From Acaryochloridaceae cyanobacterium VAR_48_metabat_390 (GTDB taxonomy: Bacteria; Cyanobacteriota; Cyanobacteriia; Thermosynechococcales; Thermosynechococcaceae): a stretch of DNA of 32,329 bases. A model generated the notes under the pieces. That model made no database searches, had not been told where the DNA came from, and worked only from the letters and a program-made list of their open reading frames with translations. Every line of letters starts with the position of its first letter. Within the stretch, counting starts at the first letter, position 1. Location of the stretch: NCBI GenBank assembly GCA_031422435.1, contig JANPLU010000065.1:1-32329 (forward strand), in the 5' to 3' direction. Positions 9,969-28,791 of the stretch are shown here, piece after piece. The position numbers were made by a program, and so were the translations under genes.

Positions 9969-11330
9969 TTACTTTTTCTGAACGGCGTAGCAAAGACGAG
10001 CAATGAGGGGCTTTTGCTGCTTCATGAGTTCGGCGGTGCGAAGTCTTAACCCTCTCAAGAAGGGGAGTAGGTTATTGGTTTTGGCTCCGTCGAGGTTGCC
10101 TTCTGTGGCGTTCCAGTTATTCCACCAGTCTGGCTCGGTGAAGTCTGTGGGGGATGCGTCAAAGTTGAAGCGGTAGATCCCAGGATCAAGCTGGTCGGAC
10201 TGGATTTTGGTCTTGAAGCGAAGGGCGTTATTTTTGACGCTTAAGTCGGTAATCTGAAAACCCTGAGTCTCGATGGGCTGAAAGCTTTTACCCTGATATT
10301 TTTCGAGGGTGGGGGTGAGAGCGATCGCCCCTCCATCAATGGGCAATACACCATTGAGCGCACGATAGGGAATTTCGACATCGGTAGGTTGGCTATCTGT
10401 CTTTTTAGTGACGACCAAAAACTGAACCGGATCGGTAGACTTGGTTTTGCGTACCATTACGCGACTGTCATTGAGGGCTTTGGGCTGAAGGATATCTTTG
10501 CGAGGGGCAGATTTAACTTCGTTGACGTTAAGGGTTGCAGGTTGCTCAACGGGTTGGGGAGAGAAGATCACAAACTCATTCTCTACGGCACTAAGTCCGT
10601 TGCGCTGGAGCTGGTCGAAGAAGTGGTTGATGTTGCCGTAGCTGCCAATCAAAATGACGTAAAACGGATGAAAGGCTTTGGCGGGTTTGCCAGGAGTAGC
10701 GTATTCAAAGTTTTGGTTAGAGATGCCTACGTCATAGACGGTGCCTTTGAACTCACTTTTGACGGCTAAAATGCCTACGGCATAGCCTTGACTGAGGTAG
10801 CGCTGAGCCAATAAGTTTTGAACTAACCTTACGTCGGCATCTTTTTGATATAGGTCTGTGACAACTAAGCTGAGTTGATTTTCGGCTGGATCGCTGAGGG
10901 CTGCGTCAATACGGCTGGTGCTGAATTCAGCTCCGCCTTGGTAAAAGGCGGGGAGCTGCGCTTTAAGGAAGGTGTCTCGATCAATGGTCTGCTTTTGGGT
11001 GCCAAACCGATAGTATTTTGTGGTGGCGCTATTCCAGCCTGTGGAAGAAGCGCTGTCGATGAGGCGAAGGGTTTTGTTATATCGACTGTCTGGCAAACCG
11101 TTGACGTAGCCCTGCATGGAGGGGGTGCCATCGAGTAATAGCGAAAGCTGTATAGATGGGGTTTGCTTAAGCCGAGCGGTGGCTTCGGCTGAGGGGGTAG
11201 GCAGCGCGCAGGAGAGGGGCTGTTGGTTGGGGCTACATCCAGAGAGTAGATAGGCTGCGGCGATCGCCCCCCAACCTGTCAAAGTGTTGATTTTTCTGGG
11301 CTGAAATCTTAGACGGGAGGTAAATTTCAC
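9969..11330 (-). CDS. Putative lipoprotein with vWA/MIDAS-like N-terminal domain
   Basis: GTG start; lipobox-like LLSGC; LLLDGTPSM (DxTxS) and LVVTD motifs. Confidence 0.7.
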   Translation of the reverse strand: MKFTSRLRFQPRKINTLTGWGAIAAAYLLSGCSPNQQPLSCALPTPSAEATARLKQTPSIQLSLLLDGTPSMQGYVNGLPDSRYNKTLRLIDSASSTGWNSATTKYYRFGTQKQTIDRDTFLKAQLPAFYQGGAEFSTSRIDAALSDPAENQLSLVVTDLYQKDADVRLVQNLLAQRYLSQGYAVGILAVKSEFKGTVYDVGISNQNFEYATPGKPAKAFHPFYVILIGSYGNINHFFDQLQRNGLSAVENEFVIFSPQPVEQPATLNVNEVKSAPRKDILQPKALNDSRVMVRKTKSTDPVQFLVVTKKTDSQPTDVEIPYRALNGVLPIDGGAIALTPTLEKYQGKSFQPIETQGFQITDLSVKNNALRFKTKIQSDQLDPGIYRFNFDASPTDFTEPDWWNNWNATEGNLDGAKTNNLLPFLRGLRLRTAELMKQQKPLIARLCYAVQKK

Positions 11331-11384: not shown

Positions 11385-12887
11385 CTAAGCAATTTTTTGC
11401 CAAATTTTAACGGTGTGGTTATCTCCACCGGAAACGAGTTTTTTGCCGTCGGGAGAAAAAGCAACGGGATAACAGCCATCTAGGGTATTGAGCAGTTGAC
11501 CTGTAGGAAGATCCCAGAGTTTGACGGTGCGATCGCCGCCCCCGCTAACAATGGTTTTTCCATCGGGGCTAATGGCAACCGAAATGATACCTGGAGCATG
11601 AGCTGTGATGGAATGGCGAACAAATCCTGCGCTTAAGTCCCAGATTTTTAAGTTTCCGTCAGTACTGGCGCTGACGAGAGTTTGACCGTCTGAGCTAAGG
11701 GCTAAAGCGTGAATCCAAGACTGATGCCCTGTCAAAAAGTGGCGCAGCTTCCCAGTGTCAATGTTCCATAGACCAATGCTTTGATCAACACTTCCGCTAA
11801 CAAGTGTTGTTCCGTCAGAGCTAAGGGCGATGGCGGTCACAGAAGCAGCATGTCCTGGCAGCATTCTCAATAGACTACCCGTCTGGACATTCCAAATTTT
11901 GATGGTTTGGTCTGCCCCCGCGCTGATCAGCTTTTGACCGGAAGGGGTAAATAGAACGGCATGGACTGGCCCATTATGGCTTTTGGCTGTGCCGCTCTGC
12001 ATAAAAGTCCGCAAAAGCTTATGTGATTCTAGATGCCATGCGGTCACTTTTTGGTCAAAACAGCCGCTGGCGATGAATTGCGCGTTGGGGCTTATGGCAA
12101 CTGATGTGACAGCTTGCGATTGCCCCACAAAAGAGAAGTTGTAGCGTCTAGTGTTTAGATCCCATAGGTAGAGGGCGCGATCATCGCTGCCACTGGCAAA
12201 CCAGTTTCCATTTGCACTGATGGTTATTGCGTTAACAGTAGATCTATGGGCTTTAAGCGTGTGCAGACATTCCCATGCGCTAGCTGTTGTTAACTGGGCT
12301 GGAGAAGGAGAGGTGGCGCTTTCTATGTCAACCCACGCTACATCCGTTGGTTTTGCGTCTCGTTCTGCCCAGAATGTATCACGGGCTGTTTGGGCGATGG
12401 TGAGTTCTTCTTTATGGACTTCGGTGAGATTGGTGGTTAGGGTTTTGGCGATCGCCGTTTCCCAGTCTTCTGCAGTTAGCTGAACCACATTATTGGCTGA
12501 TTTAAGCTGATCTTTAGGTACATTAGGCTCTGAGCTTGGTTTTGGCTTAATGCTAGAGACATTAAAACCTCTTGGGAAGATGGTTTTATCGCTATAAAGC
12601 GAACCATCAAGGGTCGCGCCATCCAAGTTTGCACCTTCTAAATTTGTTCCGCGTAGATCAGCTCCTGATAAGTCTGAACGACTAAGATCGGCGAAGGATA
12701 AATTTACTCCTTCACTCAGATTTGCTCGGCTTAAATTAGCACAGCTTAAATTAGTATTTTGAAGATTTGCGTCCCTCAAATCAATCTCAGAAAGACAAGC
12801 CCAAGCAATATTTTCACCTGCAAGATCGATGCCTTGAAAATCTCGTTTCCCCATAGAGTATTGATTTAGAAACTCTCTCGATTTCAT
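11385..12887 (-). CDS. Pentapeptide-repeat + WD40 beta-propeller protein
   Basis: 108-aa pentapeptide module, linker, then ~7 GH...WD/WN repeats. Confidence 0.9.
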   Translation of the reverse strand: MKSREFLNQYSMGKRDFQGIDLAGENIAWACLSEIDLRDANLQNTNLSCANLSRANLSEGVNLSFADLSRSDLSGADLRGTNLEGANLDGATLDGSLYSDKTIFPRGFNVSSIKPKPSSEPNVPKDQLKSANNVVQLTAEDWETAIAKTLTTNLTEVHKEELTIAQTARDTFWAERDAKPTDVAWVDIESATSPSPAQLTTASAWECLHTLKAHRSTVNAITISANGNWFASGSDDRALYLWDLNTRRYNFSFVGQSQAVTSVAISPNAQFIASGCFDQKVTAWHLESHKLLRTFMQSGTAKSHNGPVHAVLFTPSGQKLISAGADQTIKIWNVQTGSLLRMLPGHAASVTAIALSSDGTTLVSGSVDQSIGLWNIDTGKLRHFLTGHQSWIHALALSSDGQTLVSASTDGNLKIWDLSAGFVRHSITAHAPGIISVAISPDGKTIVSGGGDRTVKLWDLPTGQLLNTLDGCYPVAFSPDGKKLVSGGDNHTVKIWQKIA

Positions 12888-12905
12888 ATTGGCAGGCTAG
12901 TAAAT

Positions 12906-13772
12906 CTATCGGTTAAGCTCAGGGGCATTTTGGGCTAAGTATTCTCTAAAAACCTGACGAGCGGCTTTATGTTCTCCATTAGGCATTAAGTCAGATAACC
13001 ACCAAGTCCACTGACATTGATAGCTTTTAGGTTCATCGGTGGCAATAAGACGGGCAAGATGTTCACAATTCCACAAAGTAGAATAGGCCCAATCACCAAA
13101 GACGGAGCGTGCGTAGATGAGACGCTCAATGGTCTTTTGGGGACTAAATACAATACTGTCAATGCCTTCTACAACTTTTGCATCTTGCTTCTCAAAAGGC
13201 TGTAATCCTTTGCCAGTGTCAAAAATATACCGATCTGACAAACCAATTCCGTAGTGCCAAAAAGGATCAGAGGGGTTTTGCCAGTTGAGCAGCCGTCCAT
13301 AACGCTTACTCTTAGTGTCAAATTGGTCTTTGAGTGCTTTGATACTGTCCTGGAATAAAACTGGTTGTTGAGTTGTTTTACCAGACGGAGTTTCTAAGGC
13401 TTGACAATATTCGCTAATGATTGCGGACGGCTTAATCTGAGAACGGTCAAAGCCTTGAGGAAATTGTGTGTTCGAGTTATGGAGGACACCATCTAGTGTG
13501 GCAGAATCTAGACTGGCTCCTATTAAATTAGCATCGTATAAATCTGCACCGCTTAAATCTGCACGACTTAGGTTTGCAAAAGACAAATTTGTCTTTTCAC
13601 TTAAGTTAGCATCACATAAGTTTGCTCCGCTCAGGTTAACATCTTGTAGGTCAGACGCTCTAAGATCTATTTTAGTCAGCGTTGCCCAAGCTAAGTTTTC
13701 GCCCCTTAAACAAACACCTCTAAAATTACGCTGCCCACTTTTGTATTTTTCAACTAACTCTTTAGCTTTCAT
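12906..13772 (-). CDS. Pentapeptide-repeat + LRAT/NC (permuted NlpC/P60-like) domain protein
   Basis: 108-aa pentapeptide module; C-terminal WHYGIG and WNCEHLA motifs. Confidence 0.8.
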   Translation of the reverse strand: MKAKELVEKYKSGQRNFRGVCLRGENLAWATLTKIDLRASDLQDVNLSGANLCDANLSEKTNLSFANLSRADLSGADLYDANLIGASLDSATLDGVLHNSNTQFPQGFDRSQIKPSAIISEYCQALETPSGKTTQQPVLFQDSIKALKDQFDTKSKRYGRLLNWQNPSDPFWHYGIGLSDRYIFDTGKGLQPFEKQDAKVVEGIDSIVFSPQKTIERLIYARSVFGDWAYSTLWNCEHLARLIATDEPKSYQCQWTWWLSDLMPNGEHKAARQVFREYLAQNAPELNR

Positions 13773-13824
13773 GTTGTAATTTAGAAGCTGACAGGGCTGA
13801 ATTTAGTCTATACACATAACTATA

Positions 13825-13833
13825 AGTATTCCC
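13825..13833 (-). promoter_or_regulatory. Putative SigF/SigJ-type promoter element GGGAATACT
   Basis: Exact GGGAATACT on the minus strand ~53 nt upstream of ATG 13772. Confidence 0.45.
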
Positions 13834-13866
13834 AAAAAGAGAGGAAACGCGATCGCTTCTTCATTC

Positions 13867-14439
13867 CTAGAAAATCCCCTTCAGGTTCAGTACAAAACCA
13901 GGCAAAACATCTTCACCTAAAACCTGAGTTGGGGACTGAAGCACTTCAACTTGCTTTCCAATTCGGTAAATTTCAACCATCCGGTCTTGAGGATTGAGCA
14001 GAAACCCTAATAAAACGCCATTTTCGATGTATTCCTGCATTTTGTTTTGTACAGACTTAAGGCGATCGCTGGCAGACCGTAGCTCAATCACAAAATCTGG
14101 TGCAAGGGGTAAAAACCCTTCTGGATTTGGGTTAAATGCCGTAATTCTTTCCTTTACGACCCAAGCCGCATCAGGAGAGCGAACAGCACCATTAGGTAAA
14201 ATAAAGCCTGTTGAGGAATCAAACACAATTCCCAGACCTGCTTGGCGATTCCATAAACCCAAGTCAATCGTAAGATTCGCATTTCGTCTGCCAGATTCCC
14301 ATCCTGTTGGCGGCATCACAATCAGTTCTCCCTTAGCCGTCAGTTCCAGTCTAATATCACGGTTGTCTCGACAAAGCTCACGAAATTGCTCATGGTTTAA
14401 ATGAGTGATCGAGTCTAAATTCAGCGTCAGGGCAGTCAT
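13867..14439 (-). CDS. Uma2-family (PD-(D/E)xK) endonuclease
   Basis: GELIVMPPTG, DSSTGF.LPNGA.RSPDAAW, PDFVIELRS. Confidence 0.93.
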   Translation of the reverse strand: MTALTLNLDSITHLNHEQFRELCRDNRDIRLELTAKGELIVMPPTGWESGRRNANLTIDLGLWNRQAGLGIVFDSSTGFILPNGAVRSPDAAWVVKERITAFNPNPEGFLPLAPDFVIELRSASDRLKSVQNKMQEYIENGVLLGFLLNPQDRMVEIYRIGKQVEVLQSPTQVLGEDVLPGFVLNLKGIF

Positions 14440-14591
14440 AAAACAGCCTCAGAAAGCAGTAACTAAAGCTTAACATTGCTGCTACTAATAGCAGAACTGT
14501 ACTAGAGATATACGCAGGCAGCTCTTATCTTCAATAGATTTCGCCCTCCATCGTCCGGTATCATGACAAGACCTTATGTCATCTTCAGTCA

Positions 14592-15443
14592 ATGTCCTTT
14601 GATAACCTGTGCAAGCTTTTATCAGAAAAGCATCCAGATCGTTTTGCGACCTGGATTTTGGGTCAACCCCTCACCGCCGTAAAAGTGCTCAAAACAGAAC
14701 TGAGCATTGAACCCATTCGTGCAGACTCAATTACCCTACTGCAAACCCAAGACCGGATTTTGCACCTAGAGTTTCAGGTCAAGCTCAGTTCAGACCCGCC
14801 TCTACCGCTCAGAATGTTGGACTACTGGGTGCGGTTACACCGTCTCTACAGAGTGCCCATTACCCAAGTCTTAATTTTGCTTTGTGAGCCAGACAATGCT
14901 GAAACCATCGAAACTGCATTCGTCCTAGAAAAAACCCGACATGAATATCAAGTGCTAAAAATGTGGGAGCAAGACCCCTCCACATTTCTAGAAGATGAGG
15001 CTTTATTAGCCTTAGCGCCTTTGGCAGCAGCCACAATGCCAGAAAGACTTTTGAGCCAGGTTGCAGCTCAAGTCAGTACAATAGAATCAAACTCGGTACG
15101 CCAAACTATATCTTCCTATGTCCAGATTTTGGCTGGTTTAAGATTCAAAAAAGCTCTCATTCGGCAGATATTTCAGGAGGGGATGATGCGTGAGTCTGTA
15201 ATTTACCAAGACATTCTGAAAAAAGGTGAACGTAAAGGTGAACGTAAAGGCAAGCAGGAAGGCAAACAGGAAGAGTGTCTTGCCCTCGTCCTTCGCTTAC
15301 TGATGCGACGACTGGGCACATTAGAGCGTGGGGTGCTTTCTCAAGTCACAGATCTTCCACTGGTTGTATTAGAAGATTTGGCAGAAGCACTCCTTGATTT
15401 TTCGACCGCTGCCGATCTCAATGAGTGGCTACGGTCACGATAG
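14592..15443 (+). CDS. Rpn-family PD-(D/E)xK nuclease / putative transposase with C-terminal DUF4351
   Basis: FDNLCK, PIRADS, LHLEFQ, RMLDY; G(E/K)xxG repeats; LEDLAEALLDF...WL tail. Confidence 0.9.
   Translation: MSFDNLCKLLSEKHPDRFATWILGQPLTAVKVLKTELSIEPIRADSITLLQTQDRILHLEFQVKLSSDPPLPLRMLDYWVRLHRLYRVPITQVLILLCEPDNAETIETAFVLEKTRHEYQVLKMWEQDPSTFLEDEALLALAPLAAATMPERLLSQVAAQVSTIESNSVRQTISSYVQILAGLRFKKALIRQIFQEGMMRESVIYQDILKKGERKGERKGKQEGKQEECLALVLRLLMRRLGTLERGVLSQVTDLPLVVLEDLAEALLDFSTAADLNEWLRSR
15186..15443 (+). CDS. Candidate intragenic small protein (RpnS-like antitoxin, DUF4351 only)
   Basis: AGGAGG at 15175-15180 followed by in-frame ATGs at 15183 and 15186; 85 aa. Confidence 0.5.
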   Translation: MRESVIYQDILKKGERKGERKGKQEGKQEECLALVLRLLMRRLGTLERGVLSQVTDLPLVVLEDLAEALLDFSTAADLNEWLRSR

Positions 15444-15469
15444 CGTCATTTTCTGCGCTGCCTACAGCG

Positions 15470-16480
15470 TTATTTGGGTGACGTGACAGAAATGACCAAC
15501 ATAAGACCCCAGAAAATGATCCCTGCGATCGCCCAAGCCCGTTGATGATTCTTAAACGCCTTAATGCTCTCCCATTTACGGCTTTGCCAAGCCCAGGTAT
15601 TGCCATTGGCTGCCATTCCGATCGCAAACCCAACCGTAATCAAACCACCCCATCCAGGAATCCACATTAACAGCCATAGCCACAACCCACCCGATAGACG
15701 ATTGGGTAAAAACCAAAACCAGGGCAACAAAAACGCACCCCAATTCCAGCTTCCTTTAATACTGGCGGGTACAACGCTTGACTTGCCTTGACCGGAAGTA
15801 TTGGGGCTAAAGACATCTTGAGCGCTAATCGGTTGGGGTGATGACGCAGAAGTCCAGTTCGTTGGCTTTGGTTCTTGCCAGTCGGTAATGGCTGCATCGG
15901 CGACACGGCGTACCTTTTGCAAGAGTTCTTTGGCAAGGTCAAGGTTAGGATTTACAGGGGCTGGCTGGGGTGAGGTTGGCTGAGAAGGGCGATCGCCATA
16001 AGCAAGCGTCTTCTTTCTCCCTTTTGGCGGATGGCTACTTGAGTACTGCTCTAGGTCAACCTCTGGCTGGGCTGGCTCTGAAATGACTGCGACTGGCTGA
16101 AGGGTGCCAGATGCAGACTCTGGGTGCGCAGCGATCGCCCCTGCCCTTATCGGGTCAAAACCTAGAGGAAATTTTGTAGTTTCGTTATAAACCGCCCCTT
16201 CAAGCTGAATACCTTCTAGGTTTGCCCCTTCTAGACGGGTGCCTTTTAGATTTGTATTGCGGAAATCCGCTCGACTTAAATCAGCAAAGGTTAAATTAGT
16301 TTCGCCACTAAAGTTAGACTCGCTAAGGTTAGCGCCGCTAAGGTTCGCATGGCTAAGGTCTGCACCCTGAAAATTCACCCCCGTCAGCTCAACCCAGACT
16401 AAATTTACGCCCGATAGCTGTACGCCACTAAAGTTTCGTTCTCCGGCTTTATACTGCGCTTTGAGTTGAGTAATATCCAT
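15470..16480 (-). CDS. Pentapeptide-repeat + Trp-rich membrane domain (WNWGAF) protein
   Basis: 108-aa pentapeptide module, Pro-rich linker, WNWGAFLL...GNTWAW...F..HQRAW membrane domain. Confidence 0.85.
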   Translation of the reverse strand: MDITQLKAQYKAGERNFSGVQLSGVNLVWVELTGVNFQGADLSHANLSGANLSESNFSGETNLTFADLSRADFRNTNLKGTRLEGANLEGIQLEGAVYNETTKFPLGFDPIRAGAIAAHPESASGTLQPVAVISEPAQPEVDLEQYSSSHPPKGRKKTLAYGDRPSQPTSPQPAPVNPNLDLAKELLQKVRRVADAAITDWQEPKPTNWTSASSPQPISAQDVFSPNTSGQGKSSVVPASIKGSWNWGAFLLPWFWFLPNRLSGGLWLWLLMWIPGWGGLITVGFAIGMAANGNTWAWQSRKWESIKAFKNHQRAWAIAGIIFWGLMLVISVTSPK

Positions 16481-16516
16481 TGGTACAGGTTAGCAACCAA
16501 TCAAAGTCTAATCAAC

Positions 16517-17518
16517 TTATTTAAAAATGCGGGTAGGACTCCCAACCTCTCCACTGCCCACTTTTTGAGTCATAAACTGGGCAAATTGAGCGGCTCGTTG
16601 TTGAGTGGTAAAGGAGGCTACCTGAATCGACTGTATTCCAATATCTTTGCGTGTGATCACTAAAGCATCACGGCAAAAGTTTGCATTGACGTTGCTGAGT
16701 GTATTGGGTGAATTACTAACAAAGACAGGATAAAAATCTACTGGGAAATCGTTGATATTAGTAGGGAGTGGGTCGCCACAACTGTTCTGTGGATACTGAA
16801 TGGCTTCAAAAGGATTGGTTTGAGTCTGAATTAGAGTGGATGGCTTAAATAAGTTCATAGCAGCAAAGCCCAACCCCAGAACCAGAAATATTCCAAACGA
16901 TACACCCAGACATGATGCATTTGAGTTTTTGGTCGTAGGTGCTGCTGCTGACGTTGGGGCAACAGTCACATTCGTGGCAGGAAACAATACCGAATCATCA
17001 GGGTTAACAGCAGGAGGCGGGGTGTTTCCTATGGTGGTTTGAATCGGAGAGAAAATCTGTGAGGGTGGTTCAGCAATAGGTTCTGGTACAAGAACTGTAC
17101 TTTGGGCTGTTTGGGCTTTCAATTGGGTGACGCTGGCAATTCGGCTCTGGCGCTCTAGCTCTTGTGCTGCGATGCCACCTGCCGCTGCAATATCAAAACC
17201 TACGGGGAAAACCGTCTTTTGGTCATAGATGGCACCTTGGGCGATCGCCCGTTCCAAACTCGCCCCTTCCAGATTTGCGCCACTTAAATTCGCTCCAGAC
17301 AGATCGGCTCCATTAAGTTTGGCATAGCCTAAGTTTGTCCCTTCGCTGAAGTCTGCGCGACCCAGCAGCGAATCCATAAACTGAGTGCCGTAAAGATCGG
17401 CTCCTCTAAAGTCAGCTTCGCGTAGGTCTAGCCCACTCAGGTCTACGCCGCTGAGGTCTGCTTTTTGGAAACTGCGATCGCCCTTGTCATAGCGTTGCTT
17501 TAGCTGATTTCTATCCAT
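16517..17518 (-). CDS. Pentapeptide-repeat + single TM + extracytoplasmic domain protein
   Basis: 108-aa pentapeptide module, Pro/Thr linker, TM (LGVSFGIFLVLGLGFAAM), C-terminal domain with SCGD...FYPVFV...NFCRD...QVASF. Confidence 0.85.
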   Translation of the reverse strand: MDRNQLKQRYDKGDRSFQKADLSGVDLSGLDLREADFRGADLYGTQFMDSLLGRADFSEGTNLGYAKLNGADLSGANLSGANLEGASLERAIAQGAIYDQKTVFPVGFDIAAAGGIAAQELERQSRIASVTQLKAQTAQSTVLVPEPIAEPPSQIFSPIQTTIGNTPPPAVNPDDSVLFPATNVTVAPTSAAAPTTKNSNASCLGVSFGIFLVLGLGFAAMNLFKPSTLIQTQTNPFEAIQYPQNSCGDPLPTNINDFPVDFYPVFVSNSPNTLSNVNANFCRDALVITRKDIGIQSIQVASFTTQQRAAQFAQFMTQKVGSGEVGSPTRIFK

Positions 17519-20839: not shown

Positions 20840-20920
20840 TGGGCGAGGGGAGACTCGAACTCCCACGACCGAAGTCGCCACATTTTGAGTGTGGTGCGTC
20901 TACCATTCCGCCACTCGCCC
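20840..20920 (-). tRNA. trnL: tRNA-Leu(CAA)
   Basis: GGGCGAG acceptor stem, TGGCGGAATGGTAGACGC D arm, CCACA-CTCAAAA-TGTGG anticodon arm, long variable arm, GTTCGAGTC T loop; no encoded CCA. Confidence 0.96.
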
Positions 20921-20996
20921 TTGAATGAGGCTTTTCTATCTTATATCAGACTGAACGATGAGACAACAAGTTTGCGATCGCCCTCTGTCGCTTCAA

Positions 20997-21398
20997 TCAA
21001 ACAGGTGGCTCAGTTGCAAACAGGTCAATATCATCCATTGGGTAGTGTTGGCGATTGCCCGTCCACAAAGGACAGCGTTGCTGATGAGCGGTAGCAGCAA
21101 GCAAATAATCTTCTAGAGAAATGCCTTGAAATGCTTTTCGGTAGCGGTTGGCATAATGTCCCGCCACACGAGCTACTTCTCCATCGAGGGTCACAGCCTG
21201 ACACAACCCAAAGAAGGCTTCAATCTGGCGATGCTCACGCTTGAATGCGCCTGCATAAAGTTCGGCTATCACAATGGGCGACAGCAAAAATATCGTGCCA
21301 TGTTCCGCTAGCGCTACAAAGCGCTCAACGGTTTTAGGATGTTTCTTCATCAAGTGAATGACGACATCAGTATCTAAGACCAAGCGCTCAGTCGTCAT
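20997..21398 (-). CDS. vapC: VapC-family PIN-domain toxin
   Basis: LVLDTDVVI, IAELYAG, LEDYLLAATA, LWTGNRQHY; start 21398 or 21407, overlapping the antitoxin stop. Confidence 0.9.
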   Translation of the reverse strand: MTTERLVLDTDVVIHLMKKHPKTVERFVALAEHGTIFLLSPIVIAELYAGAFKREHRQIEAFFGLCQAVTLDGEVARVAGHYANRYRKAFQGISLEDYLLAATAHQQRCPLWTGNRQHYPMDDIDLFATEPPV

Positions 21399-21651
21399 TT
21401 TGCTCATTTTTGAGTATCCGGCTGGAATTACGGAGCGATCGCACGTATTGCTCTGGTTCGCAGTCGGCAAAGCTTTCTAGTGGTGTCATCTCTTCAAAAA
21501 ACTGGCGCACGTCACTGGTAGAGGAGTTGTGCTGAAGGTCTTTTTCGACTGCCCGACGAATCAACTCAGATATGCTCAGTCCATCAAATCTTGATCGTGC
21601 TTTTAGTCGCGCGTGAAGGTCGTTTGGCAGGTAAATTTGCGTTCGGTGCAT
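21388..21651 (-). CDS. CopG/RHH antitoxin (VapB-like)
   Basis: MHRTQIYL...SISELIRRAV ribbon-helix-helix directly upstream of and overlapping the PIN gene. Confidence 0.88.
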   Translation of the reverse strand: MHRTQIYLPNDLHARLKARSRFDGLSISELIRRAVEKDLQHNSSTSDVRQFFEEMTPLESFADCEPEQYVRSLRNSSRILKNEQNDD

Positions 21652-28227: not shown

Positions 28228-28791
28228 CTAAAGCGACGGTATCACAAGCTGCCATTCAGATGCTGCCGAACGGGATAATCCAGGCGTCTCTCCCACAACA
28301 TAAGGACCCCAATAGTGACGAGAGCCATCTAGGGAAAAGGCAACCAGTACGTCTCCCTTTCTTAAGGTTAGATTTCCTTCAGGCAACGAAAGCAGAAGCC
28401 CTGCCCTACTTCCTTCCTTGGGCGCAAAGTCCCAGTGTACAGGGGCACGATAGGCATTGGCAGGCGAATTATTTTGGATAGACTGCTGAGATAACAGCAC
28501 AACTCGGATGGGGTATGGACTGGCGTTGCGGATTCGCAGGCCATTAGTAAGGGATGGCTGAACGATTGATACAGAGGGTGTTGCCGTAGGTAACGCCGTA
28601 GGACTGGGCGCAACCTCTATGACAGGGGGTGTAGAGTCTTTTGGCGTTGAGGGTTCAATCCATACGCTGAACTGAAGCTGAAGCAACATAAATGCCAACG
28701 CTCCGCCGCCTAATGCTGCCAAAATAAGGGACAGAATGGATGGTTTCGCCGCCATCGCTTTTGGAGTAGTGTTTTCGACTGGTTGTGTCAT
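28228..28791 (-). CDS. Hypothetical membrane-anchored protein
   Basis: N-terminal TM, Pro-rich linker, HWDFAP.EG...L.LSLP...YWGPYVVG domain. Confidence 0.75.
   Translation of the reverse strand: MTQPVENTTPKAMAAKPSILSLILAALGGGALAFMLLQLQFSVWIEPSTPKDSTPPVIEVAPSPTALPTATPSVSIVQPSLTNGLRIRNASPYPIRVVLLSQQSIQNNSPANAYRAPVHWDFAPKEGSRAGLLLSLPEGNLTLRKGDVLVAFSLDGSRHYWGPYVVGETPGLSRSAASEWQLVIPSL

Follow-up and report, generated by a model that had tools for sequence, protein, structure and literature searches.

A constant pentapeptide-repeat head as a candidate docking tag for varied tails in a cyanobacterial tubulin-like/ATPase system

Here, we propose that a constant 108-residue pentapeptide-repeat head is a docking tag. 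It is carried by four genes (A, B, C and D) of a 32,329-nucleotide contig (JANPLU010000065.1, our C65; its whole length is called the window) from a 3.70-Mb cyanobacterial genome (Acaryochloridaceae cyanobacterium VAR_48_metabat_390, our G000). On balance, we favour a reading in which the head would dock on the ATPase of a tubulin-like/ATPase envelope system and so plug varied C-terminal tails into it, most likely for surveillance or defence. It is the predicted binding of a head to that ATPase, a giant protein with an actin/Hsp70 fold, that makes a shared docking tag likely. Together with gene E, a predicted lipoprotein gene downstream of D, genes A-D make up the accessory arm of a system that has its core on a different contig. 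The layout is one of constant adaptor and variable cargo, within a bigger machine than was assumed by an earlier note on this DNA, in which the heads were thought to tie the four proteins together. A single head clade, eight tail types in 11 genomes, an exchanged head on D and an exposed conserved patch uphold the docking idea of that note, but the four genes are not self-contained and the modelled partner is the core ATPase.

The head clade and its core

Over residues 1-108 the heads of A-D can be aligned without a single gap; pairs share 44-65 identities of 108, and Y10, G13, R15, F17 and FPxGF (104-108) are invariant in all four, which reproduces the alignment and residues first described. 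They are pentapeptide repeat (Rfr fold) modules by PF00805 matches and by Foldseek matches to solved pentapeptide repeat proteins, and the predicted model (predicted local distance difference test, pLDDT, 97) shows a pentapeptide beta-helix that is capped at both ends and preceded by one N-terminal helix. The head profile matches 27 open reading frames (ORFs) in the genome; in leave-one-out profiles the four heads score 99-140 bits and the best other protein of the genome 84-87 bits. In a tree of 48 modules, a single branch separates 31 heads from the 17 others (support 86/95, not starred). A break in repeat register, seen as a 6-residue repeat at 55-60, is common to all four heads, and a motif scan of the genome adds just one unrelated ORF. 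As a constant of the family the break fails: it is missing from 4/25 aligned heads and from both heads of genome G453, and one further head has a longer insert.

Since third codon positions are only 31-42% identical among the four heads, the duplications are old. A recent local burst of duplication was considered and rejected, third positions being near saturation and heads grouping by tail. In the tree, heads from different genomes cluster when they share a tail type, whereas heads of one genome do not, and therefore most head-tail pairs are stable orthologues rather than freely shuffled cassettes. The heads are under purifying selection, with ratios of nonsynonymous to synonymous substitution of 0.04-0.14 in 9/9 head pairs. 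A phylum-wide search found no further heads among the 11 candidates that it scored per genome, a weak blank because so few were scored, and the G453 heads exist beyond that sample. When longer proteins were searched globally with this profile, long repeat proteins crowded the results, all of the at least 120 matches listed being at least 583 amino acids long.

The core of G000 (C32:19721-26200, equivalent to L031:5722-12201) has four genes, encoding a 156-amino-acid membrane protein, a 500-amino-acid tubulin-like GTPase, a 1110-amino-acid ATPase and a membrane/coiled-coil protein that ends in a 124-amino-acid domain, here called X (L031:11827-12198). The GTPase has the signature loop GGTGASG, of the GGGTG(S/T)G-like kind, and matches Tubulin_2 at 34.7 bits (cut-off 27) over only positions 146-210 of the 356-position Pfam model. 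In the ATPase, DFGTS (575-579), DxGGGxSD (783-790) and GGN (914-916), the phosphate-1, phosphate-2 and adenosine motifs of the actin/Hsp70 fold, are invariant in 25/25 sequences, and its profile matches are actin, FtsA and MreB (best E 0.0017). There is no Pfam SrfB match to this ATPase; SrfB has an actin-like fold. Gene E has an invariant Cys32 and a conserved MIDAS-like DGTxS ... TD motif; a weak VWA_2 match appears in 1/26 members (E 0.07), nothing falls below E 0.1 in the PDB, and its Atlas matches are unnamed clusters only. Because E co-occurs with the tubulin-like gene (present in 25/26 other genomes with E in a 400-genome sample of the phylum) and sits at ATPase loci (54/78), we count it as a core component. 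The tubulin-like gene itself is patchy (33/401 genomes). We also observed that the G000 core lies between anthranilate synthase-like and dihydroorotase-like genes, as named by sequence reading. In other genomes, second ATPase copies fused behind an X domain (L060:12685-15666, L044:3952-6879) lack the N-terminal region and have decayed nucleotide motifs, and are possible decoys or regulators.

The heads travel with this core, a genomic linkage that we regard as well supported and very probable. They occur in 10/48 genomes of the order (at least 143 bits; next best 114), and in each of the 10 the tubulin-like gene and E are present as well, with just one X gene. Heads without the core were found in none of the 48 genomes; three further genomes have the core and lack this head clade, and the congener G002 (99% complete) lacks heads, tubulin-like gene, E and X altogether. 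A head gene directly follows the core X gene, or lies within two genes of it, in 6/10 (G001, G003, G004, G006, G009, G022), and the contig ends after the core in two of the 10. In G009, the four core genes are followed by two other genes and then by A, B, Uma2, D and E.

Elsewhere in cyanobacteria, the slot after the ATPase is filled by two to six X genes. Our census of this slot took the best 80 of 281 ATPase loci, leaning to close cyanobacterial relatives; 26/78 loci were dropped for having less than 4 kb downstream, leaving 52. Of these, 44 carry at least two X genes but lack a head, four have one X gene with pentapeptide-headed genes (one, L080, with longer heads outside the clade), four have neither array and none has both. 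X-headed WD40 genes occur at 7/78 loci and an X-headed FGE gene in G021, mirroring the head-WD40 and head-FGE genes. The arrays exclude each other at the sampled loci, X and head share WD40 and FGE tails, and we infer that the beta-helix replaced N-terminal X. Domain X has 1335 representatives at E up to 0.001, often in tandem pairs, and its model is confident (pLDDT 93). It has no Foldseek match at E 0.001 (best VIA Z 2.5), no useful sequence match in the PDB and unnamed clusters only in the Atlas, which does not imply a new fold; against the GrpE beta-head there is a weak match to GrpEL1 (Z 2.0, root-mean-square deviation 3.0, 49 aligned residues, rank 19 of 19). A metagenome scan with the X-bearing core protein gave 47 pattern matches, none confirmed. 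At L059:6374-9123, two genes with longer capped pentapeptide heads and no W29 directly follow a core with one X gene; the same fold may have been recruited there independently.

Predicted docking on the ATPase

Before any complex was modelled, conservation had outlined an exposed patch on the head: W29, F/Y65, R70 and E84, with weighted frequencies of 0.80, 0.91, 0.75 and 0.80, on a background at the i+2 position elsewhere of 1% W, 5% F+Y and 8.5% R. W29 is found in 24/31 family heads and in 0/24 other capped pentapeptide modules, counted after one A-type fragment was dropped from the outside set and four non-family modules were moved into it.

Head D was then modelled with ATPase residues 335-1110, the sole pair modelled, using our own alignments. 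The complex scored 0.82, 0.77 and 0.82, the best of three controls 0.01; the runs agree in at least 98% of contacts, and the partner has a pLDDT of 91. The score mark, roughly valid for our own alignments, is reached by 116/157 solved pairs and 2/215 mismatched pairs. The predicted interface takes in head residues 26-31, 44-49, 65-70, 84-90 and 105-108, which cover the patch (W29, F65, R70 and E84), and ATPase residues 517-522, 608-623, 654-657, 828-830 and 853-862. Judging by the Hsp70 motif layout, 608-657 and 828-862 lie within subdomains IB and IIB, where the nucleotide cleft opens. Exchange factors of Hsp70 bind in the IB/IIB region. No solved complex of this kind is known to us that the prediction could simply have reproduced. 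The model supports direct binding of head D to the ATPase, which we consider moderately likely.

On the ATPase side, G857 is the closest predicted contact of head A28 and W29, and R853, G857 and R862 are invariant in 7/7 head-lineage rows, as against 5%, 3% and 17% of 65 others. The contacted insert at 515-523 is missing in 63/65 rows from outside the head lineage. Of the two outsiders that bear it, G453 turned out to encode a tandem pair of heads with W29 (136 and 134 bits).

The same heads could instead bind each other, assembling A-D into a complex of their own that is independent of the core. The single clade and the operon-like spacing of the genes (36 nt between A and B, 18 nt between C and D) would suit such an arrangement, for which adaptors with predicted homotypic binding offer a precedent (effector-associated domains, EADs; PMC7159879, in the sections drawn on here). 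However, none of the 48 genomes of the order was found to have heads and no core, most relatives have A-B on one contig and D-E on another, both ends of the helix are capped, and the ATPase model already accounts for the exposed conserved patch. We therefore judge head-head assembly improbable.

Several observations weigh against docking of all heads on the ATPase and against reading much into their distribution. The binding comes from a single prediction, made for head type D, and close cousins such as the stand-alone Alr5209-type protein can pass such predictions, none having been among the controls. A-type heads mostly lack W29 and R70, and all seven family heads without W29 are A-type, so that A may bind otherwise. 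The other insert-bearing outsider, G454, has no head above 86 bits, and the headed genes of G020 are of the longer type, outside the clade and without W29. The predicted interface of the ATPase shows no significant excess of lineage-diagnostic residues (4/23 vs 73/753, p = 0.19). Unrelated genes follow the core in G000 and G007, with no adjacent head gene. Finally, the head-bearing genomes are mostly of one genus, and co-occurrence thus represents few independent events, while the A2 profile was itself built from most of these genomes.

Taken to its end, this line of doubt would make A-D ordinary tandem paralogues of a common capped module with common tails, sharing no function, and the model score a false pass. 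Four doubly capped modules of equal length do lie outside the family, the fold is that of Alr5209 (TM-score 0.96, root-mean-square deviation 0.8 A), the tail-A domain is also found on a Ser/Thr kinase of G000, and the clade support of 86/95 is not starred. Against mere paralogy stand the co-presence and co-loss with the core, the position in the adaptor slot, the exclusion with X arrays, the family-specific W29, the purifying selection and the out-of-sample heads of G453, and we give it as little credence as head-head assembly.

Tails, function and locus

What might the tails contribute to a system in which the head docks on the ATPase? Beyond the heads they are unrelated, as the earlier note had it. 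Gene A (16517-17518, minus strand, 333 amino acids; head 17195-17518) continues through a linker and one transmembrane segment (residues 203-221) into an outward SPOR-like Cys-pair domain, PF05036 matching 4/7 orthologues (best E 0.008). Gene B (15470-16480, minus strand, 336 amino acids; head 16157-16480) has a linker and a Trp-rich membrane domain (WNWGAF motif) with weak MpPF26/DUF2628 matches only and a locally variable patch at residues 271-300. A and B each have orthologues in eight other genomes. In gene C (12906-13772, minus strand, 288 amino acids; head 13449-13772), the head is fused to an LRAT-like (permuted NlpC/P60) domain. The gene C protein itself scores 14 bits against a curated PF04970 cut-off of 24.3; 15/24 of its homologues match at E up to 0.1 (best E 2.5e-5), and the catalytic His and Asn-Cys are invariant in 24/24. 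Profiles of tails A and C found no meaningful solved relative. Because the listed homologues of tail C (79-252 amino acids searched) are nearly all stand-alone cyanobacterial proteins of about 157 amino acids, it looks like a captured gene; the same fusion is found in G004 and in fragment P0142.

Gene D (11385-12887, minus strand, 500 amino acids; head 12564-12887) joins the head to a WD40 propeller. Between D of G000 and D of G003/G007, DNA identity is 51-63% over codons 1-150 and 78-98% thereafter, so that the WD40 tail stayed the same while its head allele was exchanged. Further tails in relatives are ARC6-like IMS, FGE-sulfatase and SH3b-like domains and, in G453, an unnamed repeated domain. 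In G005, D is split into two overlapping frames (L019:7693-9104), and in G008, G007 and G003 a GUN4-domain gene precedes D (L021:3169-5010; L023:3-749; L026:2-796), with a coiled coil and pentapeptide repeats where complete; these genomes have the other D-head allele. The Ser/Thr kinase of G000 that also carries the tail-A domain (C99:1429-4230, L032; SH3b-like end) is followed by a VanY-like gene, and in G022 and G453 genes of this type are neighbours of head genes.

As a mechanism, we propose that heads would dock their tails on the ATPase. The membrane members (A and B, and the IMS and SH3b tails of relatives) might then report the state of wall or membrane to it, and the soluble members (WD40, LRAT-like, FGE) might be brought in to act as scaffold, enzyme or binder. 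Nucleotide exchange may be gated by docking, with the ATPase and the tubulin-like GTPase acting as a switch or polymer, and the head would now do what N-terminal X domains do in other cyanobacteria.

Whether such a system serves defence or envelope upkeep is, on its genomic context, evenly poised. Patchy presence, mosaic alleles and conflict-system neighbours point to defence; wall-type tails and neighbours point away, as does PADLOC, which gave no match except a WD40 hit for D. We also observed, each in one genome, an iSTAND/AAA/vWA trio inserted inside the core (L039:7410-11376) and a weak DO-GTPase2 match among the genes after an X array (L040:610-5566). The same system and docking site could, then, belong to an aid to envelope remodelling or division, the heads acting mainly on an ATPase/tubulin polymer, either as regulators of its nucleotide exchange or by tethering it to the membrane. 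Such a role would suit the wall- and division-type tails (SPOR-like, ARC6-like IMS, SH3b), the amidase, VanY-type carboxypeptidase and M23 genes that flank head genes in G006, G022 and G004, and the coincidence of the predicted site with that of Hsp70 exchange factors. The text of Makarova and Koonin (2010; PMC2875224) used here likewise proposes membrane remodelling for FtsZl1 operons. However, the 33/401 distribution of the tubulin-like gene, the loss in G002 and the mosaic alleles resemble conflict systems, as do the iSTAND/AAA/vWA and DO-GTPase neighbours, and WD40 (beta-propeller), FGE and GUN4 are among the effector-position domains listed in the consulted part of Kaur et al. (2020; PMC7159879). 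A remodelling aid is thus unlikely, if less so than the other two alternatives.

More broadly, and somewhat short of an even chance, the heads may belong to an undescribed tubulin-plus-actin-fold envelope machine whose ATPase offers a socket for interchangeable sensor and effector proteins. In one lineage, and perhaps separately in a second (G020), X would have been swapped for an unrelated beta-helix taken from an Alr5209-like gene, the ATPase gaining a matching insert, and new genes, such as a free LRAT-like enzyme, would join by fusing to the tag.

Within the window, the four head genes are not contiguous: between B and C stand the Uma2 gene (13867-14439, minus strand), inside the cassette, and an Rpn/DUF4351 gene (14592-15443, plus strand), convergent with B. 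The latter has no counterpart at the equivalent place in G009 and is an insertion outside the system; the former also lies between B and D in G009 (88% identity) and is probably a passenger. Gene E (9969-11330, minus strand) lies outside the coordinates of the earlier note. All four head genes are together in G000 alone, and three of them in G009. The resemblance reported between the 5' flanks of two head genes did not survive, amounting to 7/13 ungapped positions that are not kept in the G009 orthologues. A promoter/terminator scan gave signal at or below chance, and a repeat scan found the head DNA itself and short two-copy matches, with no repeat at the cassette boundary. An unnamed coiled-coil gene of about 190-210 amino acids stands just before A in G009 (L011:7918-8481), G007 (L022:1813-2451) and G003 (L025:6385-7014) and has no tblastn match in G000. 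Elsewhere in the window are a tRNA-Leu(CAA) beside a PIN-domain gene (20840-21470) and four ORFs of 152-187 amino acids without Pfam or NCBIfam match (121-2020 and 28228-28791), two of the three in 121-2020 starting with a signal-peptide-like sequence.

Our findings also bear on pentapeptide repeat proteins in general. As far as the consulted text of a 2021 review (PMC8145042) goes, an explicit biochemical function is given for only two kinds, those of cyanobacteria being largely unexplained. A cyanobacterial beta-helix now has a named predicted partner, a residue-level interface and point substitutions that can be tested, and the heads give a handle on a widespread tubulin-like/actin-fold operon. 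They may, in addition, exemplify how one adaptor domain gives way to another of unrelated fold, with no change in the types of cargo.

Comparison with known systems

In the literature covered (mostly open papers, in main texts rather than supplements), we found no description of this tubulin-like/actin-fold core or of pentapeptide adaptors for it. Three systems resemble the core. SrfABC (bioRxiv 10.64898/2026.09.18.752743, in the part of the preprint used) has a membrane-spanning protein modelled as a platform for a large partner, with flanking vWA and FGE-type genes, but no SrfA- or SrfC-like gene is seen in the core and its ATPase lacks a SrfB Pfam match. The GAP1-N2 DO-GTPase systems, as presented in those sections of Kaur et al. 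(2020) considered here, likewise have tubulin-fold and Hsp70-fold proteins, there in predicted conflict operons with vWA genes. There, however, tubulin and HSP70 (with GrpE) are separate themes, of Firmicutes and actinobacteria, around a DO-GTPase and GAP1, neither of which is seen in the core. The FtsZl1/Tubulin_2 operons of Makarova and Koonin (2010; PMC2875224), in the portion consulted, likewise have a divergent tubulin-fold GTPase and membrane genes, there beside vWA-type ones, and at one of the loci given (Magnetospirillum) an Hsp70-like gene is the neighbour. FtsZl1 is described as a protein of about 1000 amino acids with a long coiled coil and a helical C-terminal domain, and its cyanobacterial members in that list have about 900-1130 amino acids and a coiled coil, whereas the core GTPase has 500 and is followed by the actin-fold ATPase; the word "pentapeptide" is absent from all six supplements of that paper.

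The nearest structural relative of the heads is Alr5209 of Nostoc PCC 7120 (PDB 6OMX, NF052603), also a capped four-coil beta-helix (model TM-score 0.96, root-mean-square deviation 0.8 A over 108 columns, 36% identity). NF052603 is the top NCBIfam match of all four heads, yet at 68.9-88.1 bits they fall below its cut-off of 125 and are not members. In addition, the heads span 109 rather than 113 model positions, are fused to long tails and mostly have W29.

In layout, the closest parallel is with the EADs (Kaur et al. 2020; PMC7159879), which, in the text drawn on here, are likewise small, non-enzymatic, constant N-terminal domains with variable tails (WD40, FGE) beside an NTPase core. Like EADs, the heads are closest to paralogues of their own lineage (31 vs 17 modules, support 86/95). 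EADs also have one copy fused to the core, whereas no head was seen on the membrane, tubulin-like, ATPase, X or E genes at the fetched loci, nor on 170 proteins of the X search. As described in those passages, EADs are alpha-helical or alpha+beta and their predicted binding is homotypic; the heads are a beta-helix and their predicted binding is heterotypic, to the ATPase. So far as these passages define it, the EAD layout is better matched by domain X of other cyanobacteria than by the heads.

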